Below, in pieces: positions 29,180 through 60,695 of a DNA stretch of 64,000 nucleotides. How positions within the stretch are numbered: position 1 is the first letter of the stretch; each line of letters begins with the position of its first letter. A program made the position numbers and the translations under genes. Source of the stretch: a virus (lineage: Duplodnaviria > Caudoviricetes); the IMG/VR virus record IMGVR_UViG_3300035522_000179, positions 96,001-160,000 of that record. The stretch is one strand, 5' to 3'. The notes under the pieces are model-generated. The model ran no database searches and was not told where the DNA came from. It saw only the letters and a list, made by a program, of their open reading frames with translations.

Positions 29180-29191
29180 AACAAATTAATA
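29180..29191 (+). promoter_or_regulatory. late-type promoter AACA-N6-TA
   Basis: AACAAATTAATA upstream of 29239. Confidence 0.6.
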
Positions 29192-29238
29192 AATGATTTC
29201 AATAACCGAAAATTAAGAAAGATAAGAGGGTAAAAGAA

Positions 29239-29970
29239 ATGGCGCAAAATTACGGAACAAGGGACACACGTAAAGAATTAAAAGATACAAAATTTTTACT
29301 GAAAGATGTTGCAAAAAGAATCACGGAAGCAAAAAAAAACGGGGACGTGGATGAATTGGAAAAATGCACTCATGAAATTGATGCATTTATAGATCATCTG
29401 AAAAAGGTAAAATTGAATGGGTATGACCTTAGACTCAGTAAAGAATTATTTGAACAATTGAGCAAAGGAGCGATGCAAGCTGGAGCAATAATCGGTTTGG
29501 GATTTGGTGCATGTGCTGCTTTAACAAATAGGATGAAAAAAACGGACGCTAAATACCGGAAAATGTGTTATGATAACTTCCGTAATATGGATGGAAACAT
29601 GAGTACTAATCCGGATAAGTTGAGATACGGTCTGGAATTAACGAAAGTTGCCAATAAGTCGGATAGACGCATTAAAAGTGCTGAAGCGTTAACAAGATCT
29701 ATGGGAGCTAATGCAGCAGTGGCTATCACTGGTGGATCTTTATGTGGAATAAACAGTATGCGAATTGATCAATTGCAGAAGAATTTGGACAAGCAAATAA
29801 AAAAGTTAGAAGACATGAGTAGAGAGTTAAAAGCAGAAATCAAACAATTGAAATCTCAACAGCGTGCTATAAAAGAATCAGTAGAGGATATTAAGTTGGA
29901 GATTTATGAGTCCTGTCGGTATGGAGAAATCAGTGAAGAGGAAATGGAAATACTTTTAAATATGATATAA
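29239..29970 (+). CDS. helical protein with hydrophobic segments and conserved C-terminal KESVEDIKLEIYESC tag (copy A)
   Basis: Ends IKESVEDIKLEIYESCRYGEISEEEMEILLNMI; late promoter upstream. Confidence 0.85.
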   Translation: MAQNYGTRDTRKELKDTKFLLKDVAKRITEAKKNGDVDELEKCTHEIDAFIDHLKKVKLNGYDLRLSKELFEQLSKGAMQAGAIIGLGFGACAALTNRMKKTDAKYRKMCYDNFRNMDGNMSTNPDKLRYGLELTKVANKSDRRIKSAEALTRSMGANAAVAITGGSLCGINSMRIDQLQKNLDKQIKKLEDMSRELKAEIKQLKSQQRAIKESVEDIKLEIYESCRYGEISEEEMEILLNMI

Positions 29971-29988
29971 AGGAGAAAACGGATATGA
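29867..29988 (+). repeat. 122-nt dispersed repeat (tag + stop + RBS + next ATG), copy A
   Basis: First 31 nt and last 45 nt are identical to 37203-37324. Confidence 0.9.
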
Positions 29989-30161
29989 TTTCTTTAGATC
30001 TTGATTCAACTATAGATAACGAAAGATCGAATTCACTCAAAGACAAAGATTCACGGAACGCAGAAATCTGTAAGAATGAATCTGTGGAAGATTTTAAACT
30101 TTCTATCTTTGGAGTGAAATCTCTGAAAGGGAAAGGGATTTTCGTTTAGAACCTGATATAA
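29985..30161 (+). pseudogene. decayed tag-family gene remnant
   Basis: 54-aa ORF 29985-30149 contains KNESVEDFKLSIF; after a frameshift the DNA reads EISERERDF, the second half of the tag. Confidence 0.65.
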
Positions 30162-30169
30162 AAAATCAA

Positions 30170-30213
30170 AAAAAAAAGAGAGGGATTTTAAATCCCTCTC
30201 TTTTCTCTTTTTT
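30170..30213. terminator. bidirectional intrinsic terminator
   Basis: AAAAGAGAGGGATTT-t-AAATCCCTCTCTTTT. Confidence 0.8.
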
Positions 30214-30230
30214 TTGTTTACTTGTTGATA

Positions 30231-30803
30231 TTACTCTTCGATCTTCCTCGCAATTCCGAGTACTTCGCCATTCATGGAATCCACTACTTCAATTCCTACT
30301 GTAGGAAGACCAAAGGAAAGTGCGCGATTGTATGCTGCAGTCCTGTAGATCAAACCAGTGTTGATGTCCATAAAGTCAGCGTTCTGATACATTGGGGACT
30401 TTGCAATCTCATAGACGTCAGGTCCGTTTGAATTAGAATGATGCTTTTTAGGACTTCCAGTAGGTTCCGCAGACATCTTTGATTTTTCATCATAACGTAA
30501 CCTTTCATTCCAGTCCTTCTCACTACGCTCAATATTCCATGCCTTATACATCTTCTCGATGTAATCTTTTACAGCACATGCAATGTCATCAAACCACCCA
30601 AAGTGATCATATACAATCTCGTCATTAAGTACCCGTTTGCAATATTCCTTGAAATCATCCGACGAGTTAGAATAGAAAATGTTATCCAGTTCGGAAACAT
30701 CCTGGTTCTTAAGCCAGTCGCGAAACCCAATAGCATTAATCATCCAGGAATAATCATTACTCATGAGAAACGCGGATAACCGTTCACATCTTATTGTGAT
30801 CAT
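30231..30803 (-). CDS. hypothetical protein (190 aa)
   Basis: GAGGAG RBS. Confidence 0.75.
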   Translation of the reverse strand: MITIRCERLSAFLMSNDYSWMINAIGFRDWLKNQDVSELDNIFYSNSSDDFKEYCKRVLNDEIVYDHFGWFDDIACAVKDYIEKMYKAWNIERSEKDWNERLRYDEKSKMSAEPTGSPKKHHSNSNGPDVYEIAKSPMYQNADFMDINTGLIYRTAAYNRALSFGLPTVGIEVVDSMNGEVLGIARKIEE

Positions 30804-30828
30804 AATTCAATACTCCTCTCTCTTTGAT

Positions 30829-31254
30829 TTAGATCGTATAGAACTTAATTCCGTAATTCTTCTCTCTTCTGTCATAGAACACCCCGCAAACAACACCAGG
30901 AAGAGAATTGAGTTTGATTATCTCATCCACAGAAACGTTGTCAATGTCACGATTTCTGAACTCGCAACCAAGACTGAGATTGTACAGAAACATTGCTGCA
31001 GAAGGTGCATCATGAAATCTTCTCTTGTGATAGATTCTATTCAGAACGGTAACGGTTACTTCATCGTCCTTGCGTGCGTTCTCTTCTGCGTAGTTGATGC
31101 TAATTCCATACTCGTCCAAGTCGTACTTGCGGCACTTGCTGTTGAAAGCTCTGATTGTAATCATTATTCTTGATCTTTCGGAATCAAGATGCCTCTCAAT
31201 CTCTCTTACAGCATTTTTCATTTTAGCTTCTGTCAACTCTGTCAATCCGATCAT
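30829..31254 (-). CDS. hypothetical protein, paralog of 31498..31917
   Basis: GGAGGT RBS; shares FN..C, LNRIY and terminal FY.I with the neighbour. Confidence 0.75.
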   Translation of the reverse strand: MIGLTELTEAKMKNAVREIERHLDSERSRIMITIRAFNSKCRKYDLDEYGISINYAEENARKDDEVTVTVLNRIYHKRRFHDAPSAAMFLYNLSLGCEFRNRDIDNVSVDEIIKLNSLPGVVCGVFYDRREKNYGIKFYTI

Positions 31255-31450
31255 AAGTACCTCCAGGCTCTTGATATTATCTCCACCTAAAATGTTTTTT
31301 TTGTTTTTACTTTCGTCCGTTCATTCATACTAGGACCACAGTAAATTATATGAAGTTTTAAATCAGATTTGAGTAATTAAATTACTTTATTTATTCTGAT
31401 TCACGAAAATGATATATCATTAATAATATTGACTTTCCGGGACCGCGATA

Positions 31451-31495
31451 AAAAAGAAAGAGTTTGGATTATTCCAAACTCTTTCTCTTATGTAT
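31451..31495 (-). terminator. intrinsic terminator, near-identical to 31930-31967
   Basis: AGAGTTTGGA-ttat-TCCAAACTCT. Confidence 0.75.
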
Positions 31496-31497
31496 TT

Positions 31498-31917
31498 TTA
31501 GATATAATAAAATACCATCTTACAGGTACGGTCAATAAACTCTTCATGAAGAAACACCTTCTTACATACAATTGGGTATTTCTTGGATTTGTAGGTAGAC
31601 ATACTAAAAGCATATTCTTTACTAATTACAAAGCCTAAATCAAGTTTAGAGAGTTCTGACAACAAGTCGTAGTCATGTCCAAATATATGATCTCCATAGA
31701 TCCTATTCAAATTTTCAACTGTTTCTTTTATGGAACTTTCAACAGTCACCATAGAATTCGTGATACCATCATTTTTAATCCAAATCATTTTATCCTTGAA
31801 TCCAAGTTGTTCACATTCCTTGTTGAATGTTGCAATTGACTGTAAGAGGAAATCTCTCTTTACCTGAATAAGTCCTTTTGCATTTACTGAATTTTCTGTG
31901 TTCATAATTACCTCCAT
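31498..31917 (-). CDS. hypothetical protein, paralog of 30829..31254
   Basis: GGAGGT RBS (start possibly 31905); FNKEC, LNRIY, FYYI. Confidence 0.75.
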   Translation of the reverse strand: MEVIMNTENSVNAKGLIQVKRDFLLQSIATFNKECEQLGFKDKMIWIKNDGITNSMVTVESSIKETVENLNRIYGDHIFGHDYDLLSELSKLDLGFVISKEYAFSMSTYKSKKYPIVCKKVFLHEEFIDRTCKMVFYYI

Positions 31918-31929
31918 TTGTTGATAATA

Positions 31930-31967
31930 AAGAAGAGTTTGGATTTTTCCAAACTCTTCTTTATGTA
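31930..31967 (-). terminator. intrinsic terminator, near-identical to 31451-31495
   Basis: AGAGTTTGGA-tttt-TCCAAACTCT. Confidence 0.75.
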
Positions 31968-31971
31968 GGGA

Positions 31972-32292
31972 TTACTCTTCGTATCCCATCACTTGAATTC
32001 CGTACTCACGTGCACAGGTATTCTCGACTCTACATCCACGATAGTTCGACCATCCTTCGCAGAAATATGCAACATCTGCAGTTGAGAGAAGTTCCAGACT
32101 CTTTGCCAAAAACCACAGAGGTCTTGCATCATGAGGAGCATTCTCAAAGAAGCTGTCGATCAATTCGATATCATCTGTTCCAAGCTCCTTCTTTGCTGTT
32201 TGGATGGCGTCTGCTCTCTCTCGTTTAATCTCCTCATCTGTTTTGTCTCTCATTGGTTGACTAATAAAAAGTTTCATTGTTTCTTCCTCCAT
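31972..32292 (-). CDS. DUF4406 / nucleoside 2-deoxyribosyltransferase-like protein
   Basis: KLFISQPM..LLSTADVAYFCEGWSNYRGCRVE signature. Confidence 0.75.
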   Translation of the reverse strand: MEEETMKLFISQPMRDKTDEEIKRERADAIQTAKKELGTDDIELIDSFFENAPHDARPLWFLAKSLELLSTADVAYFCEGWSNYRGCRVENTCAREYGIQVMGYEE

Positions 32293-32319
32293 TTTTCTTT
32301 TATGTTTTCATACTGTTTT

Positions 32320-32526
32320 TCACTTTATTAAAATATAGAAATTTAACGATGCCAAAACGGTCATGATGAAGGATACAATCAGAATCGATATGAGAAGTGC
32401 TACATACGTAGAACTTTCTTTCTTCATTTTTGGAAGACCGTTTCCAATCACCAATCCAATTCCCATACTAAGTAAAAACATAATAAACAAACCTGATCCG
32501 TGCCAAACCCAAAGTATTGGACTCAT
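32320..32526 (-). CDS. small two-TM membrane protein (start revised to ATG 32526)
   Basis: AAAGGAG RBS before MSPILWVW; two hydrophobic helices. Confidence 0.7.
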   Translation of the reverse strand: MSPILWVWHGSGLFIMFLLSMGIGLVIGNGLPKMKKESSTYVALLISILIVSFIMTVLASLNFYILIK

Positions 32527-32682
32527 TTTTAATCTCCTTTCTTCATTATTTTTCTCTTTGTGATTTAATAGATCAATATAACGATAATACAAAATATCAC
32601 AAAGCAAAACCAAAACCAATCACTCACTTCATAGATCCTTTCTTTCCAGCTACAACTATGATGTCAAGAAAATAATATACGA

Positions 32683-33498
32683 TTAAAAATAATACAACTT
32701 AAAGTAAATGTCAAAGTATTCATGGTCGATATGAACCCAAGCATAGTAAATCTTTACTAACCCGGAATTTTCCACTTTCCCACACATAAACTCCATAAAG
32801 TTCTGTGTTTTCTCAGTAAAAAACGGAAACACTTGAACGTTTACCTCAATTTTTGGGTAATCCTTATATTGAATCGGAAAGATCTTTTTGATACTAAGTA
32901 TCTCTTCATCTGACAGATCAATCTCTAATGGAAGAAACTCATTACTATCTTTTTTCAGGTGTTCCAATTCTTCGTTCATATGTTGAAGAAGACTCGTTGC
33001 TTTTTCCTCTGGAACAACCATTAGAGTCTGAGAATCTTCTGCTGTTTTTCGTATCAATTCTTTTTGCTCTATGAGTTCATCTACCAGATTCTTCAATAAA
33101 GCGATATCTGGAATATAGAGCATTTCATTTTTTCCTTCGGATTGTAAAATGCTTTGAATTAAAGGAATCAAATCTTCTTTTACTTTCAAAAGGTATTTTC
33201 CTTTTAAGGATTCCGTAGATATCTTTCCGGGAATCAAAAAGGTTCCATTATAAAGATAGAAATCTTTCCGATAAATCTTTGTAAGCTTTACTAAGAAATC
33301 TCGGAAGGCTTTCGTATCTTTTGTTAACTCTTTCTTTTTTTCTTTTAATTCTTTTGCTTCATCCATGATTCTACGTTTTAATTCTTTTAAACTTTTTAAG
33401 TCATGGTCTGGGCTATGAAGTTCTTCGAAATCCTCATAACCCAAGGCAACCATTCGTTTTTCAATATCTTCTTTTAAAGATTCTATTGTATCTGCCAT
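32683..33498 (-). CDS. hypothetical protein (271 aa) downstream of DNA polymerase
   Basis: GAGGT RBS; co-transcribed arrangement. Confidence 0.8.
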   Translation of the reverse strand: MADTIESLKEDIEKRMVALGYEDFEELHSPDHDLKSLKELKRRIMDEAKELKEKKKELTKDTKAFRDFLVKLTKIYRKDFYLYNGTFLIPGKISTESLKGKYLLKVKEDLIPLIQSILQSEGKNEMLYIPDIALLKNLVDELIEQKELIRKTAEDSQTLMVVPEEKATSLLQHMNEELEHLKKDSNEFLPLEIDLSDEEILSIKKIFPIQYKDYPKIEVNVQVFPFFTEKTQNFMEFMCGKVENSGLVKIYYAWVHIDHEYFDIYFKLYYF

Positions 33499-33508
33499 AG
33501 TAATTACC

Positions 33509-35443
33509 TCAATCTAGTTTTGATTTCACTTTTTTATACAGGTCTTCAATAGATGGTAAGTTAAACCATTTATGTCCTGTATTCAACCAGTTCTTTGTTT
33601 GAAAGTTATCAAAGCATTCCTTTGCCACATCATCATGAAAGTCCGAAGACTCTTTTGGAAGAAGTGGTAAATGAGACATGGTATGAACGGGATGTTTTCC
33701 TCCTCGGATATCAAACTGAGCGGAATCCAGTAGGACTTTGAAATACAAAGTACTCGGGTCAATATTCATTGCAAATATGGTACTTGGATAAAACGAAGAC
33801 ATATCCATGTCAATTCCATATTGGAAAATATTATTGGTTGGTTTATCTCCATACAGAGCCATTCCCACTGGAAGATTTAATCTAGGGTCTCCAACCAATG
33901 CTCCTTCAAATCCTTTTTTCTTTTTTCCACTACTCTCTTCTTCGTCATCATCCTCTTCATCCGGTTCTTCTTGAGAACCGAAGGGTGTTACATTTTGGTT
34001 TTCGCCTGGAATCTTTCCACCCATTATGAAATCATAATACTGATAGTTTCGAAGTTTCACGGTTTGTTTAAACTCCGAATCATACGGTGTGATGTTTTGA
34101 TAAGCTGTCATGTAGTAGTTTTCCAAGTCTTTTGTCTTATCTTCGATTCCTTTTTGGAGAAGTACGTCTTTGATGTTATAAATGAAATACTTCTTGTAAT
34201 TTCGATAAGGGAAGAACTTAATACTTCCCTCTTCTCCATAGTCTAATTTGGAATCTTTTACGACTTTCTTACCAACGTAGTTTAAACTAAAGGAACGCAT
34301 TTCTGGCTGACTCTTTCGAATCGCTGCATACGTTCTCATTTGGCAGACATAGTTCGTATATCCGGTATTAAAAAAGAAATCCGTTTTGGATTTGATATCG
34401 AAATGAAAATTGTCTTTTTTAAACCAGCATTCTTTCACTTCGAAATCTTTATGGCAAAACAAATCTCTCGGGTCTAACCCTAAGACTTTCGCTCTCTCGT
34501 AAATATAGTTTACGTCGAACTCGAAGTTCCAAAACTCTACGAAATCAAATTTTCGTTTGTTGATTAATTCAAACAGATGCGTAATCATCTTTGCTTCATC
34601 TTTATAAAAGAAGAATTTATAGTCTAAGACACCATAAGATTCATCAAACATCTCATGAAGTTCTTTTTTCACTTCGTCTTGATGCTCGATGAAATCCATC
34701 TCCTGTAAATGTCTTTGTTCATGAAGCTCGTTTAAATAAGCTTGTTTTTCTCTTTGTTCTTGGGTCATGAAGGTAGTATCTTTTACTTGGTATTCTCTTC
34801 CTACCAAAGCAAAAGTATAACACTTCATCCCATCATTGTCAATTAACGTTACCAAATCAATTGGACAAGTATTTGGATCTGAGGAACCTTCCACATCTAA
34901 GAAGTCTACCTCGATGTCTGCAAATGCTTTGGAAATTGGTTTTGGTAAATCGTTATCATAGGTTGTAATCCATTTGTATCGATAATACGCTCGGATATCG
35001 TAATCTGCTCCATATACATATGGATACTTATAAAGTTCTTTTAATTCTCCAAATCGTTTTGTCTTATAGCAATCATCTGCAAATGCTTTGGTGGCATCTC
35101 CACCATCTTCAATAATTGCAGATAAAATATTCTTATACTCTACGGATTTCTTCTCTACCCTAGAGAGTAACTGATAATTTAAAGCATAAGGCTTCCCATA
35201 TCCATCCAAATGAGAAGTCCGATACTCTGGTTTCTCAAAATAAATATCCATCTTTGGATTCGGAACTGTGGTGACGTATTTTTCTAACGTCGTTAAATCT
35301 TTCCAGACGATATATAAAAAGTCTGGAGTTCCTTCTTTCTTATTTTCTTTTACGTATTGAATATCCACTAACATTGAATCTTCTCTACCAATTGACCGAT
35401 TCATAGTTTCATTCATCCTTTCTACATATAACCTTATACCCAT
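33509..35443 (-). CDS. polB: family B DNA polymerase, N-terminal (exonuclease + motif A) subunit of a split enzyme; probable start 35404
   Basis: ExoI FADIEVD, ExoII FWNFEFDVNY, ExoIII YNIKDV, motif A DMDMSSFYPS; motifs B and C absent. Confidence 0.88.
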   Translation of the reverse strand: MGIRLYVERMNETMNRSIGREDSMLVDIQYVKENKKEGTPDFLYIVWKDLTTLEKYVTTVPNPKMDIYFEKPEYRTSHLDGYGKPYALNYQLLSRVEKKSVEYKNILSAIIEDGGDATKAFADDCYKTKRFGELKELYKYPYVYGADYDIRAYYRYKWITTYDNDLPKPISKAFADIEVDFLDVEGSSDPNTCPIDLVTLIDNDGMKCYTFALVGREYQVKDTTFMTQEQREKQAYLNELHEQRHLQEMDFIEHQDEVKKELHEMFDESYGVLDYKFFFYKDEAKMITHLFELINKRKFDFVEFWNFEFDVNYIYERAKVLGLDPRDLFCHKDFEVKECWFKKDNFHFDIKSKTDFFFNTGYTNYVCQMRTYAAIRKSQPEMRSFSLNYVGKKVVKDSKLDYGEEGSIKFFPYRNYKKYFIYNIKDVLLQKGIEDKTKDLENYYMTAYQNITPYDSEFKQTVKLRNYQYYDFIMGGKIPGENQNVTPFGSQEEPDEEDDDEEESSGKKKKGFEGALVGDPRLNLPVGMALYGDKPTNNIFQYGIDMDMSSFYPSTIFAMNIDPSTLYFKVLLDSAQFDIRGGKHPVHTMSHLPLLPKESSDFHDDVAKECFDNFQTKNWLNTGHKWFNLPSIEDLYKKVKSKLD

Positions 35444-35485
35444 GTTTTTTGACGCTTAATTTACCATTCATTCAACAGATTCGTA
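35435..35485. promoter_or_regulatory. divergent pair of AACA-N6-TA promoters (- at 35435-35446, + at 35474-35485)
   Basis: Exact motif on both strands. Confidence 0.6.
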
Positions 35486-35517
35486 AAGCGAACTTATAAG
35501 AAAGGAGAAAGAACCTT

Positions 35518-36495
35518 ATGAGTAAAAAAGAACCTGACGAGTATGTACCGAAAAGAAGAAAGAAAGAAGACGTGTTAAAAGATCTGGATGATCTTGACAG
35601 TATTGAAAATATCTTTTTGGTTTCTTCCGTAAAAAAGAAGGAAGAAGAGAAAAAAGAAGAAAAGATAGAAGATGCTTCTAGTTATGATGGAGATTGGCTG
35701 GATACCTTAACGGCTCTTCGGACAGAGAAGAAAAGACACAAAGGAATTGCAGATCTGTTTGGAGATAGTGAATCGGATAAAAAGAAGAAAAAGAAAAAGA
35801 AGAAAGAAAACGGACCGGTCGATCATAGTGATGACTTTGAAAGAGAGATTATGCTCCTTCAGAGTATCTTAAATGATCAGACAAAACTCTCTTCTTCTTT
35901 ACAGAGTAGATACGACAGTTTGGATCGGCAGAAGTCTGCTGCTAGAGGAGTTGGTAAGTTTACAACAGATCTTATCACTACCTTAAACACTTCTAGAAGT
36001 TTGTCAAAAGATATCGTAAAAGAAATTGCAAATATCAAGAAGAATATTGCTGAACTGAACATGAAAGAAAAAGAGAAGTTTGCAAAAGATAGCATCTTTG
36101 ATGGAGAGAACATGGGTCAGTTTGCTTCCAGTTATTTAAAACAGATCATGGGAAATTCCAAAGAGTTTGGAGAAGGTGTTGGGTATGGAATTGACGATGT
36201 ATCCGACGGCGATGACTTCTTTGATGATATGGAGTTTAACATGAGAACTTCAGAAGGATATGAAGGAAGATCCGACAGTGCAGAGAAGTACTTGAAGTAC
36301 GAAGGATCCAATGTATCCGTAAAAGTGATGTATGATAAAGCATCCGATACCAAGACCTTTATTGCAGAAGACGAAGATGGAAACATCATTGATGATTATC
36401 CTCTTCCGAAAACGATTGACAGCATATCCATCAACCATTCTACTTTGGTTGCAACTGATAGATACGGAAAGAAGTATCCCGTAATTATGATGTAA
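35518..36495 (+). CDS. hypothetical protein (325 aa, charged coiled-coil)
   Basis: AAAGGAG RBS; late-type promoter upstream. Confidence 0.8.
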   Translation: MSKKEPDEYVPKRRKKEDVLKDLDDLDSIENIFLVSSVKKKEEEKKEEKIEDASSYDGDWLDTLTALRTEKKRHKGIADLFGDSESDKKKKKKKKKENGPVDHSDDFEREIMLLQSILNDQTKLSSSLQSRYDSLDRQKSAARGVGKFTTDLITTLNTSRSLSKDIVKEIANIKKNIAELNMKEKEKFAKDSIFDGENMGQFASSYLKQIMGNSKEFGEGVGYGIDDVSDGDDFFDDMEFNMRTSEGYEGRSDSAEKYLKYEGSNVSVKVMYDKASDTKTFIAEDEDGNIIDDYPLPKTIDSISINHSTLVATDRYGKKYPVIMM

Positions 36496-36498
36496 GAT

Positions 36499-36541
36499 AA
36501 TCGAAGATTGAGAACGTAACAATTCTCAATCTTCGATTTTC
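36499..36541 (+). terminator. intrinsic terminator
   Basis: AATCGAAGATTGAGAA-cgtaacaa-TTCTCAATCTTCGATT-tt. Confidence 0.75.
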
Positions 36542-36604
36542 ATTTCTTCTTTTAAATGAAAAGACATTTAAATAAGTATTTTTGATATAAGGAGGTGACT
36601 CTGA

Positions 36605-37306
36605 TTGAACATAGAGAAATTATCAGAACCTGTGAGTGCTAAAGTAGAAGGGGATATCTCTTATCTTGGAAATATAAAAAAAGAAATCAAAGAAATCAAA
36701 AATGATATTCATAGAGCAAAGCAATCAAATGATTTCAATTCTTTAAAGAGAGATGTAAAAAGAATTGATGGTATCATTTCTGATTTGGAAAGAATTAATA
36801 GTAAAATGGATTACAGTACAGATGTCAAGGAATATAGACAGATGTCTGCCGTTTTACTTTCTCTTGGTTCAGTAATCAGTTTACTGTGGGTAGTTCCTGA
36901 TGTGAAAAAGATGATTGACGAAGACAAGCATTACAATGATTCGTTGATAGAAAAATTCATGAGGGAACAGGAAGAAGAGGAAAAGAAAGCTCAGATAAAG
37001 CATCGCTATTTTAAGGAGAAATTATCAAAGCAAGCATATTCCTTAACGAAGTTTCTTGGAACTACCGCTATTGCTGGTGGTGCATACAATGCTTACAATG
37101 CACATTATGTGAATAGTGTAAAAAAGCAATTCAAGAAAACAATTGATACCTTAAAAGAGATGAGTAAAGAAACCAAAACGTATATCGCTACAAGAGGAAG
37201 ATCTATAAAAGAATCAGTAGAGGATATTAAGTTAGAAATTTACGAGTCTTGTAGATATGGGGATATCTCTGAAGAAGAGATGGAAATACTTTTAAATATG
37301 ATATAA
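36605..37306 (+). CDS. helical protein with hydrophobic segments and conserved C-terminal tag (copy B)
   Basis: AGGAGGT RBS with TTG start; GACA-N6-TA at 36563; ends IKESVEDIKLEIYESCRYGDISEEEMEILLNMI. Confidence 0.85.
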   Translation: MNIEKLSEPVSAKVEGDISYLGNIKKEIKEIKNDIHRAKQSNDFNSLKRDVKRIDGIISDLERINSKMDYSTDVKEYRQMSAVLLSLGSVISLLWVVPDVKKMIDEDKHYNDSLIEKFMREQEEEEKKAQIKHRYFKEKLSKQAYSLTKFLGTTAIAGGAYNAYNAHYVNSVKKQFKKTIDTLKEMSKETKTYIATRGRSIKESVEDIKLEIYESCRYGDISEEEMEILLNMI

Positions 37307-37324
37307 AGGAGAAAACGGATATGA
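37203..37324 (+). repeat. 122-nt dispersed repeat, copy B
   Basis: Matches 29867-29988, including the non-coding RBS region. Confidence 0.9.
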
Positions 37325-37950
37325 ATCATTTTGAAATGCTCGCAGAACAAGTTTCCGAGCAATGCTATGAGGAAGCAGAAGCTTATTTGGAAGGAGCAAA
37401 CACCGAAGTTTCTAGAATCGGTAAGAGTGCTCTGAGAGAAAACAAAGCATTATTAAAAGAAGCAAAAAGAGCTTATCGTTTAGGAGAAACGAAAAAAGCG
37501 AAATCTTTACTGGACAAAATCATGAAAAACTTGGATGATGCTCTTGATGAGATCGACAAGATTGACGAAACAACTGGATCTGCACTTATAGGAAATATCG
37601 TGCATTCGTTTATTATGTTTATAAAGTTATTTCTTATACAGCTACTCACGTTTGGTATCGGAACCGGTATTTACGCTATAAAGAAAATGATTGAAAATGT
37701 TGTTGGTACGTTGGATCAGTTTAAACGAGTAAAAGATGTATCTCCAGCAATCGCTAATGCTAAGAGACAATCCCTTAGGGGTATGATTATTAGCTTAAAG
37801 CAGGTTGTAAGTAAAGTGAAAAAAGAAATGGGTTCTGATGGAGAAGATGTAGAGGAATCCACAGGACTTCAACTCGATATTTATGAGTCTTGCAAAAATG
37901 GAAATATCTCAGAAAGAGAAAAAGAAATACTTCTAGATTTAGTACAATAA
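37321..37950 (+). CDS. helical protein with TM-like segment and divergent C-terminal tag (copy D)
   Basis: Ends EESTGLQLDIYESCKNGNISEREKEILLDLVQ; hydrophobic FIMFIKLFLIQLLTFGIGTGIY. Confidence 0.85.
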   Translation: MNHFEMLAEQVSEQCYEEAEAYLEGANTEVSRIGKSALRENKALLKEAKRAYRLGETKKAKSLLDKIMKNLDDALDEIDKIDETTGSALIGNIVHSFIMFIKLFLIQLLTFGIGTGIYAIKKMIENVVGTLDQFKRVKDVSPAIANAKRQSLRGMIISLKQVVSKVKKEMGSDGEDVEESTGLQLDIYESCKNGNISEREKEILLDLVQ

Positions 37951-38028
37951 TAACTTTATCCTAGGTGGAGGAGTACAATTCAAGTACCCCCCCCCCCTAG
38001 GATTTTTTATGTAAGGAGGATATAAAGA

Positions 38029-38571
38029 ATGAGTAGATTTGATGAATTATATGATGTAGTAATGGAAGCAAATGCATATAATAAATATGCAAATAAATTA
38101 CAGGATGCCTTTAATAAAGATCCATATGATGATAAAGTAACTGATGATTGGGAAGATTTTTGGCATGAAACCAATAAATTGATGAGGGTTGGTGGATCTC
38201 CTAGTGCTCACAATCCTATATATAACAGAAAAGGAAATCCTGATGACAGGGAGCACGCTAGACTCGGGAAGAAAGCCTGGATGAAAAATCATGGAGATGT
38301 TGGAAGATCTCCAGAAAATCGATACAGAAGAGGAAGATATTTCGACGAACAAAAAAGAATTGACAGCTCAAATAAAAACGATCCCTACCGCATCCGGCTT
38401 CGCTTTAAGGCTCCTGATGTTCGTGATATTAAAGATAGACTCGAGGAAAACAGGAAATCCTTAAATGGAACGAAGGAATCCGTGGATGATATCAAGTTGG
38501 AGATTTATGAGTCTTGTCGGTATGGAGAAATTTCAGAAGAAGAAAGAGATTTACTTTTGGAAATGATTTAG
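38029..38571 (+). CDS. hydrophilic protein with conserved C-terminal tag (copy C)
   Basis: AAGGAGG RBS; ends KESVDDIKLEIYESCRYGEISEEERDLLLEMI. Confidence 0.85.
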   Translation: MSRFDELYDVVMEANAYNKYANKLQDAFNKDPYDDKVTDDWEDFWHETNKLMRVGGSPSAHNPIYNRKGNPDDREHARLGKKAWMKNHGDVGRSPENRYRRGRYFDEQKRIDSSNKNDPYRIRLRFKAPDVRDIKDRLEENRKSLNGTKESVDDIKLEIYESCRYGEISEEERDLLLEMI

Positions 38572-47500: not shown

Positions 47501-48346
47501 CCAGGCTTCTTCCTCAACCTGTTTCTCGATCTCAGAATGTGTCTGTTCTTTTACTTCATCGGAAACCAAATCAAGGACTTTTTCTTTCTTCTCAAGGTAT
47601 TCCTTTTTATATTTTTCATAACTCTTCTTCGCATACTTAGATAAGATCTCATCAATTCTCGGAACTGTAAATCCGCCATACTGCTGACTTGCTGCGGAAA
47701 GAATGATATCACCAATCACATCAAATGCAGTGTCAAGAGTTTTCGGTTCATTGTAAAAAATATTTCCCATTTCAAATCCGTTTTCCAAAACGGACTTTAC
47801 ATCAAACAGACAACAGTTAAAGCCATCTCTTCTAGAGGACATATCATGAACGTAGATATATCCATCTTTACATGCCTGTAAGGTTTTTACATTCATAAAG
47901 AACTTCTGGTAAAGCTCTTTGTTTAACTGACCGTAAATAAGGCATCTCTTGGTACTTGCCAAAGCAGAATCCGAATTGGCATTCTCCTTATCTCCAATAT
48001 ACATAATGGACTGAGATTTCTTATATACGGAATCCAAAATTTCTACAAAGCTCTGTTTGTAGTCTCTATAATCTCTATAAGATTTTGCAACAATGGGAGC
48101 AACGCTATCCAATGCCTTCTCCACAATATTGTGCATCGTGGGAACTGTCACGTACATGATGTCATCCTCTTCTCGTTCCCAATTGGATCGATTTAAAAGT
48201 TCTTCCACTACGAACTCCTGCAGTTTATCTAATTCTTCCTCAGTAAAGGTGTATAAACTTCGATACGCCGACTTCTTTACTGCGGTAATGACCTTTTGAA
48301 TGTCAAAGTCCTGCAGGGTTCCGTCCTTTTTAATCACTCTAACCAT
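44585..48346 (-). CDS. nrdD: anaerobic (class III) ribonucleoside-triphosphate reductase with two inteins (mature about 731 aa)
   Basis: ATP cone VIKKDG; FNCCL; QQYGG; FPKL; PMG|CRSFL; TPAESL|C; CEECG..CPKCG; RMNGYL glycyl radical loop. Confidence 0.95.
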   Translation of the reverse strand: MVRVIKKDGTLQDFDIQKVITAVKKSAYRSLYTFTEEELDKLQEFVVEELLNRSNWEREEDDIMYVTVPTMHNIVEKALDSVAPIVAKSYRDYRDYKQSFVEILDSVYKKSQSIMYIGDKENANSDSALASTKRCLIYGQLNKELYQKFFMNVKTLQACKDGYIYVHDMSSRRDGFNCCLFDVKSVLENGFEMGNIFYNEPKTLDTAFDVIGDIILSAASQQYGGFTVPRIDEILSKYAKKSYEKYKKEYLEKKEKVLDLVSDEVKEQTHSEIEKQVEEEAWATLERDMEQGFQGLEIKLNTVASSRGDYPFTTFTIGASTDKFAVLAARKCLETRMGGQGAPGKKRAVLFPKLVFTYTEDLHGEGKPLEDLFELAVKCSSKAMYPDYLSLDGNTTIAEMYHNYGEIIAPMGCVDGKEIVTYKFEGNLYVESISRMWSRIRKVFSTMPQIEGESHLYMDLMDVQIYDSKNGFVNVSRMVRNETRSWITLTLENGRVITCTPDHPFPVKGKGRTRADQISIGDVIPVITTQYNEVSDDITDDVHTWVNDYDITPDFSWMLGTLLLALDERTDSIAVPENVPKEYTEKFFNELEKNFSKIGPEIGTDYYPYPHKRSSTIYKFDSRPSLAKLMILFASQNVEMRIIPSIIFRSSRECKLAFLAGLIEYAGVIMKWTLDSTVSITLSSSGKELILQIMALMQSVGMQAEVNYGKDTYTVHAHLIDDLKNYIVIEDKKNYVSSKPSSNSEPFVDGTVIEIKHRDNYFDYSYDVTTDSDHFDVSGIYSHNCRSFLSPYYERGGFEPADEEDRPYFTGRFNMGVVSLNLPMIYMKAQQESRDFYEVLDEYLELARDVHVKTKEYLGEMRASTNPLAFCQGGIHGGHLNPSDKIKPLLDQATASFGITALNELNRIYNKKSIREDGEFPRQVMEYINKKALEFKKEDHIAYGIYGTPAESLCFAGDTKVWVSGIDSDGSVKKCIKDVKAGDLVYSYDHDANRFKLRTVVASSLTQKGARVVEVETSDGDKFICTSDHPFAVRGNDCIGYVEAQYLQENDVLMTFYVNFASEAKCTYVKSVKFLDDPCDVYNLEVLDTHNFLIGDAGVLVHNCGTQVTQFRQKYGIIENVSDRDYVSNSFHCHVTEEMDGIEKQDKEASYWDLFQGGRIQYVKYTCNYNLEAIRTYVRRAMKMGLYEGVNFKLCYCEECGHESTDTDVCPKCGSENIVSIERMNGYLSYSRVHGQTRLNAAKMAEIKERKSM
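45038..45487 (-). mobile_element. mini-intein (150 aa) in NrdD
   Basis: TPAESL|CFAGDTKV..CTSDHPF..VYNLEV..VLVHN|CGTQ. Confidence 0.93.
45995..47110 (-). mobile_element. intein (372 aa) with degenerate LAGLIDADG domain in NrdD
   Basis: APMG|CVDGKE..CTPDHPF..AFLAGLIEYAG..SYDVTT..YSHN|CRSFL. Confidence 0.93.
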
Positions 48347-48374
48347 TCAATAAAACCTTCTTTCATTTTGTGAT

Positions 48375-48459
48375 TAACAGATTGTTTTTTGGTGATATGA
48401 AATCAGAATTTTATAAAAAACTATACCCGAGTGAAAAGTGACCAAAAAACATTACTTTA
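48375..48459. promoter_or_regulatory. divergent pair of AACA-N6-TA promoters (- at 48375-48386, + at 48448-48459)
   Basis: Exact motif on both strands. Confidence 0.6.
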
Positions 48460-48486
48460 ACCCGATTAGAAAGAAGGTAAAATGAT

Positions 48487-51447
48487 ATGGAAACAAACAA
48501 TAATTCTTCTGGTTCTTATTCAGAAGAAGGTTTATTTCAAGAGTCTTATCTTTTGAATTATTTCTTTAATAAGGTAAAGTTAGCAAGAATTAGTTCGAAC
48601 CCTGAAATAGGTCGTAAGAACATGCTTGCATTGATTAAGATATTAAAAAAGAATTATATAAAACTTGGGAAAACCGACCGAGTAAAAAAGGTTCGTAAAT
48701 CAAAAGATGTTGGATGCTATTTATATCCAGCGGCTAGTTTTACATTTCCCGATAAAATGGAAGTAACGGTGTATATCTGCTTTGATGATAGTTCTTTTAC
48801 ACCAGGAGCAGCAAGTTATAATAAAGAGATTGGATATCACATCATTGTATATCCTGGTTTCTTTACAGATACAGAAGACCAAGCAATCTTTACGTTGTTG
48901 CATGAGTTTGGTCATATTCGTCTTGGGCACTGTAGAGGATACAATGCTCATCGAAATATTTTCGGAAAAGAAGATTATTCGGAGCACCGTGTAAGAACGA
49001 TGGCAAAAGGAGAAGTGATCTATCCTGAAAGTAATGCTGACTTGTATGCGGTATTAAACGGCGCAGATATGTATGCCATCTTAGGAATGTATACCCCAAT
49101 GGATCATGATGATAAATATGATTATCGTTATTCCAATGCAGAAGCGGCTGCAAGATACAAAGACGTATTTAAACGATATGGAAAACTGAGAGGATTTAGA
49201 GAAGGGGTGGAACTCTATCTTGGAGAGGATGAATCTCCTGTTACCGAAACACATATGGATACATTGGTCACCCGTCCGGAAGTTTATTTCAATAAGAAAT
49301 TTAAACTTTATCATTTCTCAAATTCAAAAAAAGATATCGTTGTTCCAATCACAGTAAATGCTGGAAACAAACTTGCAAAGCCAAGATTTTCTTCTTGGTG
49401 GACACCTCAAAAAAGTCAGATTGCTTGGGCGTTAGCAAATCAGCTTTTTGAAAAGTTCCCAGAGTGCAAATGGAAAAATGTTACCTGGGCGGTTTCCGAT
49501 TTTGATCAAGATGGACTAAAATACAAAGCCTTCAAAACCATAATAAGTGAAAGCTTTTTTAAGAAGCATGAAGACTTTATAAAGTCCATCGATATTTATA
49601 TGCATGAAAAAACCTTTAATGGGAAAGATCTTGGTCGAGGAAATGAATACAGTGTCGATGAGTTCACATGTGATTTTGCTGTAAAACCAGATAAAGTAAC
49701 TCGTGTTAGTTGGGACGAAATTATGGATTACATAAAGATCGTTCCGGATGAAGAAATGCCCGAATATATCAAAGTATTCAATGACATAAGACTGCATGAT
49801 AAAAACTGGCAGGATTTAATTCATCAGAAAAAAGAATGGCTTTATTGGGAATTTGATACGTCAAATGAAATCAGACGGAAATATTGCAAAGACCATAACA
49901 TTGAATGGTCAGTAGATGAAGAATACTTCCGATTCACTTACAAAGGAAAAGGGATCTATGAAGCTTTGAAAGAAAAAGTAGATCCTGAAACTTGGAAAAA
50001 ATTTTTAAGATCATCCATGTTTACATGGTTACCAAAGCCAGAGCAATATCCGAAAGGTTGTATATCGTACTTTACAAAAGAAGGAAGAAGACTTTTCACA
50101 AAAAGAGTATTACCAATTTGTGAGAGATATCTGGGAGAGGACATTGAATTCTCTAAGGTAAAGAATCTCACAAATATCGTATATAAAGATAAATATCAAG
50201 TGATTGTAGATACTTCTATAACAGAATCTGCATATGATGATATCTCTAATGAGCTTTTGGATTTCATTGTAGAAGCAACCGGTGATTCTCATTTTATCAT
50301 TGAAGGAATCTATCCGAAAGTATCGGAAGTATTAAAAACTCCAGTTGGAGATAAAGAGTTTAAAAGGGCAGTGGAAAACTTCATTGACAGAAACTCAGAA
50401 AAATTGCATGAACCTTGTCCGATTTCCATGATTGCTTTCACTGATGGTGATAAGAATCGATTCTATGATATTTTCAATGTCACAGAAAAAGAATTAAAAG
50501 AAATTGTATCGAAAGGAGTATCTGCAGTCTCAAGCCAAGCAAACTTCAAATTGGTAAATCAGAATCCCATTTTTAGTTTGTTTTACTGCGTTTTAAGATA
50601 CTATATTTTGAAAAATGATGAGCAAGGAATTAACGCTACCTTGGTAATTCATGCACTAGCATCTTACCCTTCAGTATTTAGTAAATACTTTAAGTATGGT
50701 GCAAATGCAGGAGTGATGCGTTATACAGCCGATCATCTTACAGAGAAGTTTATTTTCAAACAAGAAGGACATGTATTTGGAGCTCTTCGTGCAAGCATTT
50801 ACAGTTCTTATAAATTCTTAAAGCCTTACTTTAAGGATGGATCCGATAAAGAAGTAGTTCGTTATATTCAGCGTATTCGAAATGACCAAAACTCAATGAT
50901 CAAAAAGATTGCGAATGAATATAACAAAAACTACGTTGCTGGAAATACCATGACAACTCAAAACGAAACTTACGGTACGGGATCCTTAATCGATGATGCT
51001 GTAAATGATACCTCGAAAGTAGAGACCATTGGGCAAGCAGTGATCATCAGTATCCTTACCAATGGAATTAATCTGAATCTGTTAAATACTGCAGCCGCGA
51101 TGTCTCAGTTGTCTATTGTAGAACTTCGCTTGTATTTAACTCAGATTCTTACGGATAAACGATCTACAGAATTAGAAGATTTCATCAATGCGGTTTTGTT
51201 TGTTTATCTTTATGATGAAAAGCATCCCGTCAATGAAATCAAATCCAAAACGTTTTTGTCTTTTGGTATTGAATTATTTAGAAGAACCAATTCCAATAAT
51301 AAAAACATTGCTACGATTAAACGATTGCTTGATAAATGGGCGGAAGAAACTGGAATTCATTCTAGGTTCAAAAGAGAAGGTACGAGAATTTCTTATAAAA
51401 AAGGAATTTATTGGTACATTATGTTAACCATTCAAGCTGCAGCATAA
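48487..51447 (+). CDS. multidomain putative virion protein (986 aa) with N-terminal zincin metallopeptidase
   Basis: LLHEFGHIRLGH plus ESNAD; further domains separated by VTE/T and ITE/S; late promoter upstream. Confidence 0.75.
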   Translation: METNNNSSGSYSEEGLFQESYLLNYFFNKVKLARISSNPEIGRKNMLALIKILKKNYIKLGKTDRVKKVRKSKDVGCYLYPAASFTFPDKMEVTVYICFDDSSFTPGAASYNKEIGYHIIVYPGFFTDTEDQAIFTLLHEFGHIRLGHCRGYNAHRNIFGKEDYSEHRVRTMAKGEVIYPESNADLYAVLNGADMYAILGMYTPMDHDDKYDYRYSNAEAAARYKDVFKRYGKLRGFREGVELYLGEDESPVTETHMDTLVTRPEVYFNKKFKLYHFSNSKKDIVVPITVNAGNKLAKPRFSSWWTPQKSQIAWALANQLFEKFPECKWKNVTWAVSDFDQDGLKYKAFKTIISESFFKKHEDFIKSIDIYMHEKTFNGKDLGRGNEYSVDEFTCDFAVKPDKVTRVSWDEIMDYIKIVPDEEMPEYIKVFNDIRLHDKNWQDLIHQKKEWLYWEFDTSNEIRRKYCKDHNIEWSVDEEYFRFTYKGKGIYEALKEKVDPETWKKFLRSSMFTWLPKPEQYPKGCISYFTKEGRRLFTKRVLPICERYLGEDIEFSKVKNLTNIVYKDKYQVIVDTSITESAYDDISNELLDFIVEATGDSHFIIEGIYPKVSEVLKTPVGDKEFKRAVENFIDRNSEKLHEPCPISMIAFTDGDKNRFYDIFNVTEKELKEIVSKGVSAVSSQANFKLVNQNPIFSLFYCVLRYYILKNDEQGINATLVIHALASYPSVFSKYFKYGANAGVMRYTADHLTEKFIFKQEGHVFGALRASIYSSYKFLKPYFKDGSDKEVVRYIQRIRNDQNSMIKKIANEYNKNYVAGNTMTTQNETYGTGSLIDDAVNDTSKVETIGQAVIISILTNGINLNLLNTAAAMSQLSIVELRLYLTQILTDKRSTELEDFINAVLFVYLYDEKHPVNEIKSKTFLSFGIELFRRTNSNNKNIATIKRLLDKWAEETGIHSRFKREGTRISYKKGIYWYIMLTIQAAA

Positions 51448-58516: not shown

Positions 58517-60695
58517 CTACTCTTCTACGCCGTCCTCATACTCTTCGGAATCTATGATTCCTGTTTCGTGCTCTGCTACCATATCCGGTTCTTTCTCGAA
58601 GATTACCGTAGGAGCATTCCTGTCTACTGCATAGACTCTGATATCATCGTCTAAGAAATGCTCTACATAACACATCACATCGTAGTAATCCTCTTTGGTT
58701 TCAAACTCCACCATGATAGCATCTTTTCCTTCTTCTTTAAAGACGCGGTTCAAATCCTTCATGAAATCAACCAAGAAGGAATCTGGTTCCCCATCGTTAT
58801 TGAAGTACAATCCTTTTATCTTACTAAAAGGTGATAAAATACCGCTTGTGCCTGGCAAATGTATTTTCTACATTTAGATTATATCTTCATCTACTCTAAT
58901 CTATTACCAATTAAAGTAGAGCTCTCCGTTTGGGATTTTTGATCTATACTATAAATATAATATATCTCTCACCTACATTTCGTCCTATGATTGGACCTAC
59001 TCGCTTCGTGTAAGTATTTCAACTTACCTTATTTTCAAACCACCTAGAATAATCTATTTCGATATTTCTATCAATATGGTTGTCTAGCTTTCCCTAATCG
59101 TTGAAGCCATATCTCATCATTGTGAGATACTTTCTTGCGTCGATTGTCTCTATTCTTTACCTTTTTACTATACCTTTGGAGTTACCCATTGCCACTAGAT
59201 ATGTTACCATTCTAGTTTAGTAGTAAAGACTTAACGAGTTCGTTCCCGCAATTAGAAGAGAATTGAAACTGTTATTCACATAACAGCCTGACCCTTTATG
59301 CTGATCAGAATTGCCACAAGTTAGTAAATCAAATTCACTGATATAACTCGGATGAAGTCCACGGTATCTTGCTGAAATATTATTTCCGTTTTTGTTACCA
59401 AGAGAGTGCTCACCCTTTGATGTCCATTTGAACTTCGAGAAGAAGTCCATGTCGTTAATACAGTCATTGAAACGAAGGATTCCACTGGAATGCATTTTGG
59501 AAATAAGTAGTGACCCCGGGAACTTGAATATATCCACAACGTTTTCCAATGTCGCTTTCGAACCCATATTAATGATTCGATTCAAGCGAATTGAAAACTC
59601 TTTGGTCAAAAGAGATGCAATCTGTTCGTTACAGCGTAATCTCTTATTATCCAAATCCAAGTTGTCTTTCATTCGAAGTTGATTGAATTCCATCATTGCC
59701 CATCGGATAATCGCATACACATCTTTCTTATGATATTTATTCACCATCAAGATTCTTCTTGTGGTTTCATCCAGCATTCGGTTGAACGACGTTAAGGTAT
59801 CCAATCCTTTCTCCAAGGTGTTCGATGGAGTCAACTTCTTAATGAACTGCTCTTTGTTATTCACCATAGAAAGATCAAATCGATTTGTCAGGATTTCCAT
59901 CACACCCGCTGCAACACCCTGGACATATTGATACTTATCAAACATCTCCTTATGTACTTCTAAGAAGCATTTGGAAGAGATTTGAAAGTAAATATATCCT
60001 TCTTTTCTATTATCTAACGAAGGAATCAGTTTCATAATGGAATCTACCTTCATATAGATTAGGGCGTATTCAATTCCCATTTGGGATGCAACGAATAGCA
60101 TAATGTCGGTCTCTCTATGGAAGACAAACGTTCGAAATACCGGGAGCAGATATCCTGTTCCATCTACATCTGTGTAGTAGATTGGTACTCGTTTGATAAC
60201 CACTGGCATCAGAGATTTCACAACGGTAGACATGGACGTAGTGTACGTTGATTTTTCCAGTAACTGGTAAATCAAATAATACTTTCTCCCGTTGATAAAC
60301 AAATATCCATCATCATCTGTGATGGGAATCAACATGTCTTTATTGATTCGTTTCTCTCTTACTTTTTCCAAGCCAGTCTTTGGATCTTTCTCTGTAATAC
60401 TGATTAAGAGATGTACCGTAAGAAGACCAACCCGATCATCGTTGATTAACTTATAATCGTATTGGTATTTCTTTGGTACTTTCTTGTTTCTTTTGAAGAT
60501 ATGACGGTTGATGTCAATCTCGGATTCTTTGGTATTGTATTCATAACCTAAGAACTTGATGTACTTTAACACTTCCAAAGACTTCCATGCGTCGACTACA
60601 TATTCGACTAAGTCTCCGTCTGCTTCTTTGTTCATCAGTTGGGTGTTTAGATTTTTCTCATAGTCACCAACGTAGTCTGATAAATATTCGAGCAT
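58517..60695 (-). CDS. rpoB: non-virion RNA polymerase beta N-terminal subunit, spliced (exon1 60695-59304, exon2 58855-58517; 576 aa)
   Basis: DGYLFINGRKY..Q; DLDNKRLR; KGEHSLG..RGLHPSY..DL; exon join gives CGNSD|PGTSGILSPF. Confidence 0.88.
58856..59303 (-). mobile_element. group I intron (448 nt, no ORF), IA-like
   Basis: 5' exon ends in U and intron ends in G; P1 UCUGAU/GUCAGG; R element UCAACGAUUA (59104-59095); S element AAGAUAUAAUCU (58887-58876); P9 AAAUGUA-gaaaa-UACAUUU immediately before the terminal G. Confidence 0.9.

Follow-up and report, generated by a model that had tools for sequence, protein, structure and literature searches.

A shared acidic C-terminal module on divergent proteins of an uncultured jumbo phage: a candidate capsid-loading address

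Tagged genes at two loci of the window

Four genes in the window (the whole stretch of 64,000 nucleotides analysed here) encode proteins that end in the same 32-residue tail, an acidic two-helix module with a Lys-Glu-Ser (K-E-S) motif ahead of the hairpin. The source genome is that of an uncultured jumbo phage of 249,613 bp, and among the phage's own ORFs the four tails match the tag profile with E-values of 1e-18 to 1e-24, at the positions named in the preliminary description. The first of them (29239..29970, + strand) encodes a class B carrier of 243 aa, in which a basic helical body (charge +14, pI 9.6, one hydrophobic Gly/Ala-rich segment) is followed by the tag (29872..29967, +), consisting of K-E-S and an acidic helix-Gly-helix hairpin. 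The gene lies 59 nt downstream of an AR9-type late-promoter-like word, AACAAATTAATAA (29180..29192, +), which together with its flanks also precedes a paralog of 29239 at genome position 33853. Behind it stands the decayed remnant of a gene of the 37321 type (29985..30161, +), rightly described before as a fifth copy: the start and an ESVEDFKLSIF piece are kept, followed by a frameshift, with the ORF at 29985-30149 reading ..KNESVEDFKLSIF and the next frame past the frameshift reading ..SEISERERDFRLEPDI up to a stop near 30161, where the segment ends in ..EISERERDFRLEPDI. The repeat extends beyond the stop codon of 29239 into the RBS and ATG, the same as at the junction between 36605 and 37321. 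A terminator-like site (30176..30202, +), made up of a GC-rich stem and a T-run, closes the 29239 unit.

At the second locus a promoter-like word, GACATTTAAATAA (36563..36575, +), is placed 42 nt upstream of another class B carrier of 233 aa (36605..37306, +; tag at 37208..37303, +), a distant paralog of 29239 with a TTG start, a good RBS, a basic body (+8) and one hydrophobic segment. Only 14 nt behind it starts a carrier of 209 aa (37321..37950, +), which belongs to the largest metagenomic body family and has six predicted helices, one of them hydrophobic, the N-terminal motif MNHFEMLAEQVSE and a divergent tag of the E-E-S variant (37852..37947, +; 43.6 bits against the broad profile). A terminator-like inverted repeat, CCTAGG..C-run..CCTAGG followed by a T-run (37960..38001, +), separates it from a class A carrier of 180 aa (38029..38571, +), whose body is hydrophilic, basic (pI 9.2) and mostly of low confidence or disordered, with the N-terminal motif MSRFDELYDVVMEA. 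In the model of the latter the hairpin of the tag (38473..38568, +) reaches a pLDDT of 81-85, while linker residues 144-149 stay below 50. Promoter words had been reported for both loci, and both are found; however, 37321 has none of its own, and 38029, which comes after the hairpin at 37960-38001, has no AACA/GACA word within 110 nt. The frequency of AACA-N6-TA genome-wide is 0.29 per kb per strand.

Comparisons with known proteins return little for these products. With Pfam and PHROG, the four window proteins and the proteins around them yielded nothing beyond coiled-coil noise below threshold. The ESM Atlas returned only unnamed viral clusters (scores 0.78-0.79), and Foldseek, run with the model of 37321 on PDB and BFVD, brought up only generic helical bundles, none at E <= 0.001. 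For 36605-38571 a look-up listed no sequencing run, and hence no RNA data set, that contains it. AhlC and Hbl-B, far down the Foldseek list, were not counted as fold relatives of 37321, and a pore-forming-toxin fold for class B and 37321 was dropped for want of a significant fold match.

Anatomy, distribution and partners of the tag

The tag has two parts, a linear motif of the form hydrophobic-K/R-E-S sited in a flexible linker, and a strongly acidic helix-Gly-helix hairpin. Across 130 C-terminal copies the residues of K-E-S are conserved to 69, 91 and 91%, respectively, and the hairpin Gly and the Glu of Y-E-S to 98% each, with a spacer of variable length between K-E-S and the hairpin; N-terminal copies of the tag lack K-E-S. 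In the models of both 37321 and 38029 two helices are predicted and the linker ahead of the hairpin has low pLDDT. The tags are acidic throughout, with a charge of -6 to -9 in 12 of 13, and in most representatives are followed by no more than 0-10 residues, although some relatives have two to three copies or internal ones. Where carrier genes share an identical tag residue, the same codon is used in only 55% of cases, which indicates purifying selection on the tag peptide; with synonymous sites largely scrambled, the peptide is under selection and not just homogenised. Among PDB sequences the tag profile found nothing but a 12-bit chance match to WhiB3.

Four carriers and one decayed copy turned out to be an undercount, since tag profile searches of the genome yield 12 clear carriers and two to three degenerate ones. 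Eight more tagged genes form a second array at genome 33-44 kb, which adjoins the tail sheath and tube genes and whose class A and C genes are preceded by 44-bp palindromes and not by clear late-promoter words, a point that weighs against a capsid address. Besides the tag, 10 of 13 carriers share an N-terminal motif, M-x-x-[FY]-[DENT]-E-L-[YL].., that is found in 10 of the 257 called genes, all of them tagged, and in 0 of 244 other genes; in some relatives a full copy of the hairpin occupies its position. The T4 capsid-targeting sequence (CTS) MKTYQEFIAE resembles this motif, the likeness spanning just ~8 residues. The larger array and the N-terminal motif had both been overlooked in the preliminary description, as had the basic nature of the bodies and the hairpins of the protease-adjacent protein described below.

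The profile search and count of partners suggested earlier were carried out against 1.84 billion representatives and place the tag in 178 protein clusters of uncultured phages, mostly at the extreme C-terminus, with 145 tagged representatives falling into 63 body clusters. By contrast, megablast and tblastn searches of 50,697 INPHARED records with the region, a class A protein and a typical tag did not detect it in cultured phages.

The portability of the module is supported by comparison of the bodies and of the tag DNA. Stripped of their tags, 38029, the 29239/36605 pair and 37321 show no convincing similarity in profile-profile comparison; class B and 37321-type bodies share a weak 45-column match, class A and the 37321 family align only over the 14-residue N-terminal motif (probability 19.5%), and class A and class B have nothing in common (probability 0.3%). 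The body of 38029 had been described as looking unrelated to the others, which holds for the tag-free window bodies, but it is not unique, being one of five paralogs. Moreover, the relatedness of tag DNA crosses body classes: the tags of a class B gene (33853) and a class D gene (36807, both genome positions) are 92% identical, while those of class B paralogs are just 64% identical, indicating exchange between genes. The bodies range from disordered and hydrophilic to six-helix bundles and a 446-aa HExxH protein, and some tagged relatives contain enzyme domains (GNAT, HAD, phosphoesterase, P-loop). The enzyme-bearing relatives examined do not join the enzyme domain directly to the terminal tag but have a further body segment in between, which in the GNAT protein is a helical unit also present in 37321; the mobile unit is therefore often larger than the tag. 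In 10 of 13 carriers the body is basic (pI 8.2-9.6, net charge +2 to +14). Seven of the 13 have a hydrophobic, membrane-like segment, a feature that would also suit proteins acting in the cell membrane and thus speaks against a capsid address.

The linker motif, the prohead protease and its acidic neighbour

The likeness of the tag's xES site to sites in head proteins, proposed earlier, is borne out. The pattern [ILVFMTA][KR]ES[VATE] occurs at 25 sites genome-wide, 14 of them outside the tags, compared with 5.5 +/- 2.3 in shuffles. Sites of the K/R-E-S kind are found at residues 64 and 107 of the major capsid protein, within its first 110 residues and near or before residue 89, where the family profile match starts, and, in a virion structural protein matched by its profile from residue 160 on, at residue 167.

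A prohead protease had been anticipated, and one of the S80 family is encoded at genome 205591-206529 (-), with 35.6 bits to Peptidase_S80 (cut-off 23.4 bits); it also matches a head maturation protease PHROG (E 1e-16), and its homologs occur in phiR1-37 and in jumbo phages of Staphylococcus. The S80 homolog of phage SPN3US cuts after Glu with Ser preferred at P1′, and itself has a cleaved C-terminal propeptide, for which a role in bringing the enzyme to the prohead core has been proposed (PMC10052503, PMC7411985). Of 14 mapped cleavages in that phage, 13 take off N-terminal propeptides. The tag junctions read (G/A/S)-(I/T/M/V)-K-E|S, so that Glu at P1 and Ser at P1′ agree with the SPN3US logo. 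However, the S80 proteases characterised so far require A/S/G at P3 and Glu at P1, with P2 free. In the tags P3 is taken by I/T/M/V, with the small residue shifted to P4, and the junction therefore does not conform to the canonical S80 motif.

The gene directly behind the protease gene encodes an acidic protein of 435 aa (pI 4.6, 23% D+E) that matches the broad tag profile (E 1.7e-8) and contains two to three internal hairpin copies, which are its best-conserved blocks among four homologs. The order of the two genes is retained in a second phage, and the protein has neither a family match nor a match among the 50,697 cultured-phage records. By gene position, acidity and helicity it is a candidate scaffolding or core protein. 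The tag, entered as a 12-row alignment, was co-folded without controls with residues 140-262 of this protein; the scores of 0.00, 0.34 and 0.00 against a mark of 0.32 speak neither for nor against binding.

Candidate roles of the tag

The reading that we prefer, tentatively and at a little short of an even chance, is that the tag serves as a cleavable address which directs internal and possibly ejected proteins to the prohead core. The carriers would then belong inside the head of an AR9-like jumbo phage, much as the internal proteins of T4 do, and their conserved termini would address them to the core. The acidic hairpin would act as the docking element and the K-E-S linker motif as the site at which the S80 prohead protease of the phage cuts, after Glu. 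Since the 435-aa protein carries the same hairpins, the simplest mechanism would be that cargo co-assembles with the core hairpin to hairpin; proteolysis would then free the mostly basic body, which would stay with the DNA and could be ejected. As most carriers also have the T4-type N-terminal motif, the address may be two-ended. From this arrangement of sequence features we infer the docking partner, cleavage, packaging and ejection of the carriers. A bolder version, a programmable loading system of uncultured AR9-like jumbo phages in which the protease-removable C-terminal address, often together with a T4-like N-terminus, docks on core hairpins and loads shuffled cargo, possibly including enzyme-bearing proteins, for ejection into the host, seems rather doubtful. 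If true, it would be the earliest described case among tailed phages of a portable capsid address at the C-terminus.

In T4 the CTS of IPI-III and Alt is an N-terminal peptide that directs proteins to the core and is cut after Glu by the prohead protease (Mullaney & Black 1996; PMC8442874, PMC3012670, PMC7411985), and the internal proteins are “highly basic” (PMC8442874). The tag resembles this system in that a short conserved terminal peptide sits on diverse, basic proteins (dispensable in T4) encoded in variable multi-copy gene arrays. However, the dominant element in the present phage sits at the C-terminus, has about three times the length, forms a hairpin and comes with its own K-E-S, and the protease is of family S80 and not S77 as in T4. 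A parallel in protease and position is the gp245 propeptide of SPN3US, likewise from a giant phage with an S80 protease, where a C-terminal segment is removed after Glu with Ser preferred at P1′. Yet that propeptide is found on the protease only and is no portable module, all other mapped substrates lose N-terminal pieces, and the motif is A-X-E instead of hydrophobic-K/R-E. A C-terminal cargo propeptide is thus without precedent in SPN3US, which speaks against a capsid address. In HK97-fold shells a small C-terminal element alone can load a protein, as with the basic helix-turn-helix domain of the P22 scaffolding protein, which binds coat protein, and the cargo-loading peptides of encapsulins, which are ~10 residues long and not cleaved; unlike these, the tag is acidic.

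Alternatively, though we hold this to be unlikely, the hairpin could be a SHOCT-like element for docking or oligomerisation in general, which would assemble the carriers, many of them with a hydrophobic helix, into complexes within the infected cell, e.g. at the membrane; it would have no role in capsid loading, and K-E-S would be a mere linker or helix cap. SHOCT (PF09851) comprises ~30 residues in two helices with a conserved Gly and Glu, lies mostly at the C-terminus, within 50 residues of the end, is occasionally N-terminal or repeated, and is joined to many unrelated domains; it has no known function (PMC3581485). The tag fits this description in its length of ~30 residues, in its two helices with a conserved Gly between them and (I/L)(T/S)xEE after the Gly, and in its mostly C-terminal position; the hydrophobic segments in seven of 13 carriers, the multiple or internal copies of some relatives and the accompanying enzyme domains, which SHOCT has likewise, point the same way. 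On the other hand, the tag is far more acidic and has the extra K-E-S motif, and the Pfam SHOCT model matches no tag: a six-frame genome search with PF09851 at E <= 10 returned one unrelated place of 14.5 bits (cut-off 27 bits), and a Pfam scan of the four window proteins at E <= 1 gave no SHOCT. Furthermore, a SHOCT-like role leaves unexplained that K-E-S is conserved while its distance from the hairpin varies, that its motif is enriched and placed at N-terminal boundaries of the capsid protein and of one virion protein, that hairpins recur in the protease-adjacent protein, and that the T4-like N-terminal motif is seen strictly in tagged genes. The sole experimental test of SHOCT oligomerisation was negative (PMC3581485).

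It is more improbable still that the carriers represent a single paralog family, old and rapidly diverging, whose ends are kept alike by gene conversion and a structural need, such as packing together, with the tag addressing nothing. Under this explanation one would expect what is seen at both termini, which the carriers have in common, including the full hairpin copy at the N-terminal position of some relatives, as well as the weak match of class B to the 37321 type, the segment that intervenes between enzyme and tag, and a repeat running past the stop into the next RBS, as conversion or duplication would produce. Against it, class A has only the 14-residue motif in common with the 37321 family and no similarity to class B, the bodies extend from disordered to six-helix to HExxH proteins, the synonymous sites of the tag are largely scrambled, and the hairpin recurs within an acidic protein that is unrelated. 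A signal for import into a phage nucleus was dropped, as phages of the AR9 group are, to our knowledge, not known to form one.

Giant-phage heads take up tens of megadaltons of protein, both internal and ejected, in ways that are little understood beyond T4, whose ten N-terminal residues are the sole portable address characterised so far. If the capsid-address reading is right, the tag would provide a testable rule for recognising injected proteins of uncultured jumbo phages, with a candidate docking partner in sight, a list of proteins likely to be early-acting, anti-defence or membrane-active cargo, and a new means of packing foreign proteins into large capsids. If the hairpin is instead a general docking element, the SHOCT-like class would gain its first phage-specific context. 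So far the tag has been seen in phage contigs only.

Tag carriers in the phage genome

A C-terminal module of about 32 residues (the tag) had been described on four late ORFs of the window, and the four were indeed found to have it in common, as a K/E-E-S motif that precedes an acidic helix-Gly-helix hairpin: 29239, 36605, 37321 and 38029, named by their window starts, carry it at window 29872-29967, 37208-37303, 37852-37947 and 38473-38568, respectively (all +). The decayed fifth copy of the preliminary description was likewise recovered, ORF 29985 being a wreck that reads ..KNESVEDFKLSIF, frameshift, ..SEISERERDFRLEPDI, stop. The DNA repeat extends beyond the stop of 29239 into an RBS and ATG identical to those joining 36605 to 37321, so that 29239 and 29985 represent a copy of the two-gene unit 36605-37321 with a collapsed second gene. 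Just 5' of 36605, window 35518-36495 (+) encodes a 325-aa protein with Lys/Glu-rich low-complexity runs and without a family match.

The source IMG/VR virus record, of which the window covers bases 96,001-160,000, is 249,613 bp long and rated complete. Searching all of it with a tag query revealed eight additional carriers at genome 33.1-44.2 kb (the first array), which adjoins the tail sheath and tube genes. The proposed profile search of the genome ORFs returned twelve ORFs at E 1e-9 to 1e-24, and a broader tag profile matched three further ones, namely a 446-aa HExxH protein within the first array (E 6e-8), a 372-aa protein at genome 162999 (E 0.008) and a 435-aa protein at genome 204267-205574 (-; E 1.7e-8). 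The module is confirmed and more widespread than first noted. By BLAST, the carrier bodies (the proteins minus the tag) fall into class A (five hydrophilic paralogs, including 38029), class B (29239, 36605 and 33853, the last named by genome start), class C (two genes), class D (one gene) and the 37321 type.

The 446-aa protein (genome 35297-36637 (-), L014:9300-10637) contains the motif HEIGH, begins with MKEFDVYQEA, and ends in a degenerate hairpin (..MESFNDGLITEQDRDELIMMI). It is possibly a metallopeptidase with a tag, and its PHROG match is phrog_2767, a family of unknown function (E 7.5e-17). N-terminal helices resembling half a tag were seen in the products of genome 57354-58841 (-), with ..KLLEIYEST.. 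and also IKES at residue 101, and 202644-203285 (-), with ..VKLMIYERGLDEDTDLIE...

A DNA-level search of the region against cultured phages gave no match. The 1,633-aa RNA polymerase subunit shares 28-34% identity with its counterparts in jumbo phages of the AR9/PBS1 type from Bacillus, Staphylococcus, Listeria and Yersinia, and the genome encodes a GroEL-like chaperonin (47518-49749 (+); phrog_5725, E 1e-65), the terminase large subunit (59211-61367 (-)), the major head protein (224018-225769 (-); phrog_20655, E 1.8e-38) and an S80 prohead protease (205591-206529 (-)).

Anatomy of the tag

In 130 C-terminal copies the residues of K-E-S are conserved at 69/91/91%, and a spacer that varies in length separates them from the hairpin D-D-(I/L)-(K/R)-L-x-I-Y-E-S-x-x-x-G-x-I-(T/S)-E-E-E-R-D-x-L-L, while N-terminal copies begin at the hairpin and lack K-E-S. 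The variable spacer and the absence from N-terminal copies indicate that K-E-S is a separate linear motif and not a helix cap kept at constant spacing. In AlphaFold models of 37321 and 38029 K-E-S lies within a low-confidence linker: the former has six helices, a linker at 173-183 (pLDDT <50) and two short helices, and the latter is mostly of low confidence, with a linker at 144-149 (<50) and a hairpin at pLDDT 81-85. The net charge of the tag is -6 to -9 in 12/13 carriers and -3 in the divergent 37321 tag, and 10/13 bodies are basic (pI 8.2-9.6).

A proposed capsid address and a rival docking-hairpin reading

The best-supported mechanism, although still tentative, is that the tag acts as a capsid address. 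The motif M-x-x-[FY]-[DENT]-E-L.. starts ten genes of the genome, all of them carriers, and none of the 244 other called genes matches it; it recurs in many body families, in at least 37 of the 153 tagged representatives, and a few relatives bear a full hairpin at this position. The motif is similar to MKTYQEFIAE, the capsid-targeting sequence of T4 that is cleaved after Glu and marks highly basic internal proteins (PMC8442874). On this reading, the tag system would be similar in kind to known capsid-targeting propeptides, differing from them as a variant.

The homolog of the S80 protease in the giant phage SPN3US cuts behind A-X-E and favours Ser at P1'; its own C-terminal 64 residues are a propeptide that is cleaved off and has been proposed to direct the enzyme into the prohead core (PMC10052503, PMC7411985). 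Sites of the form [ILVFMTA][KR]ES[VATE] occur 25 times in the proteome, compared with 5.5 +/- 2.3 in shuffles, and 14 of them lie outside tags, including positions 64 and 107 in the major capsid protein (whose family profile matches from 89 onwards), position 167 in a virion structural protein (profile match from residue 160) and residue 469 of a 511-aa protein upstream of the protease (genome 206639-208174 (-), L021:6642-8174). The last reads TEAKE|SAFD, followed by a 40-residue helical tail, and thus shares the layout of the tag, but the tail sequence differs. Directly behind the protease gene lies that of the 435-aa protein (L021:4270-5574), which is very acidic (pI 4.6) and has two internal hairpins, a third hairpin-like C-terminus and Ser/Asp-rich low-complexity runs. 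The hairpins are its best-conserved blocks among four homologs, and the gene order is retained in a second phage (279 kb), whose counterpart is only 37% identical. The 435-aa protein may act in the scaffold or core, and one partial homolog of it carries a Lactobacillus MAG label at NCBI. Also in keeping with a link to head assembly are the position of the first array beside the tail sheath and tube genes and the AACA/GACA-N6-TA promoter words, which are present upstream of 29239 and 36605, as described, and upstream of the protease gene too.

Several observations weigh against a capsid address. P3 of the tag junction is I/T/M/V, whereas known S80 sites have A/S/G, and 7/13 carriers have a hydrophobic segment. 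In the first array, each class A or C gene is preceded by a 44-bp perfect palindrome (cctgtataaaacaataatact..) rather than by a clear late-promoter word. A generic docking hairpin is a less probable, rather unlikely reading; the published description of SHOCT (PMC3581485) fits the tag in shape, although the Pfam SHOCT model (PF09851) did not detect the tag.

Portability and metagenomic relatives

The claim that the module is portable is supported by dissimilar tag-free bodies and by tag DNA that cuts across body classes. With tags removed, profile-profile comparison gave no match between classes A and B (probability 0.3%), a match limited to 14 N-terminal residues between A and the 37321 family (19.5%), and a weak 45-column match between B and the 37321 family (18.6%). 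Tag DNA relatedness does not track body class: hairpin DNA is 92% identical between 33853 (class B) and 36807 (class D), with the same codon at 20/21 shared residues, compared with only 64% between the class B paralogs 33853 and 125239 (window 29239), and the nearest tag DNA to the class A tag of the window is that of a class C gene. These body and DNA comparisons make it improbable that the tags are the conserved ends of one family, despite the weak matches to the 37321 family. Since only 55% of identical residues share a codon overall, the tag peptide itself is under selection. The class C paralogs have their upstream region and first ~34 codons in common and diverge thereafter. Long C-runs lie 5' of the palindromes of the first array, upstream of genome 42699 and 43620, and in the window an inverted repeat with a C-run, CCTAGG...(C)11 CCTAGG, occupies 37960-38001, between 37321 and 38029, with a T-run behind it.

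A profile search of 1.84 billion representatives identified 178 clusters with the tag at E <= 0.001. For all ten clusters with listed members the source is an assembly of a metagenome or a sequencing run (one member is also at NCBI), with contigs of up to 279 kb. The tag lies within 10 residues of the C-terminus in most representatives, and some contain it two or three times, N-terminal copies among them. Masking the tags of 145 proteins left 63 body clusters. Four long members bear enzyme domains as well: one a metallophosphoesterase plus a P-loop domain, the others a HAD hydrolase, a GNAT acetyltransferase or a P-loop NTPase. In the GNAT protein a 37321-type helical unit separates the enzyme from the tag, so that the mobile unit often exceeds the tag in size. 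The metagenomic protein P0019 (1369 aa) has eleven stretches matched by the tag profile, and may be a hairpin-built repeat protein or a low-complexity artefact.
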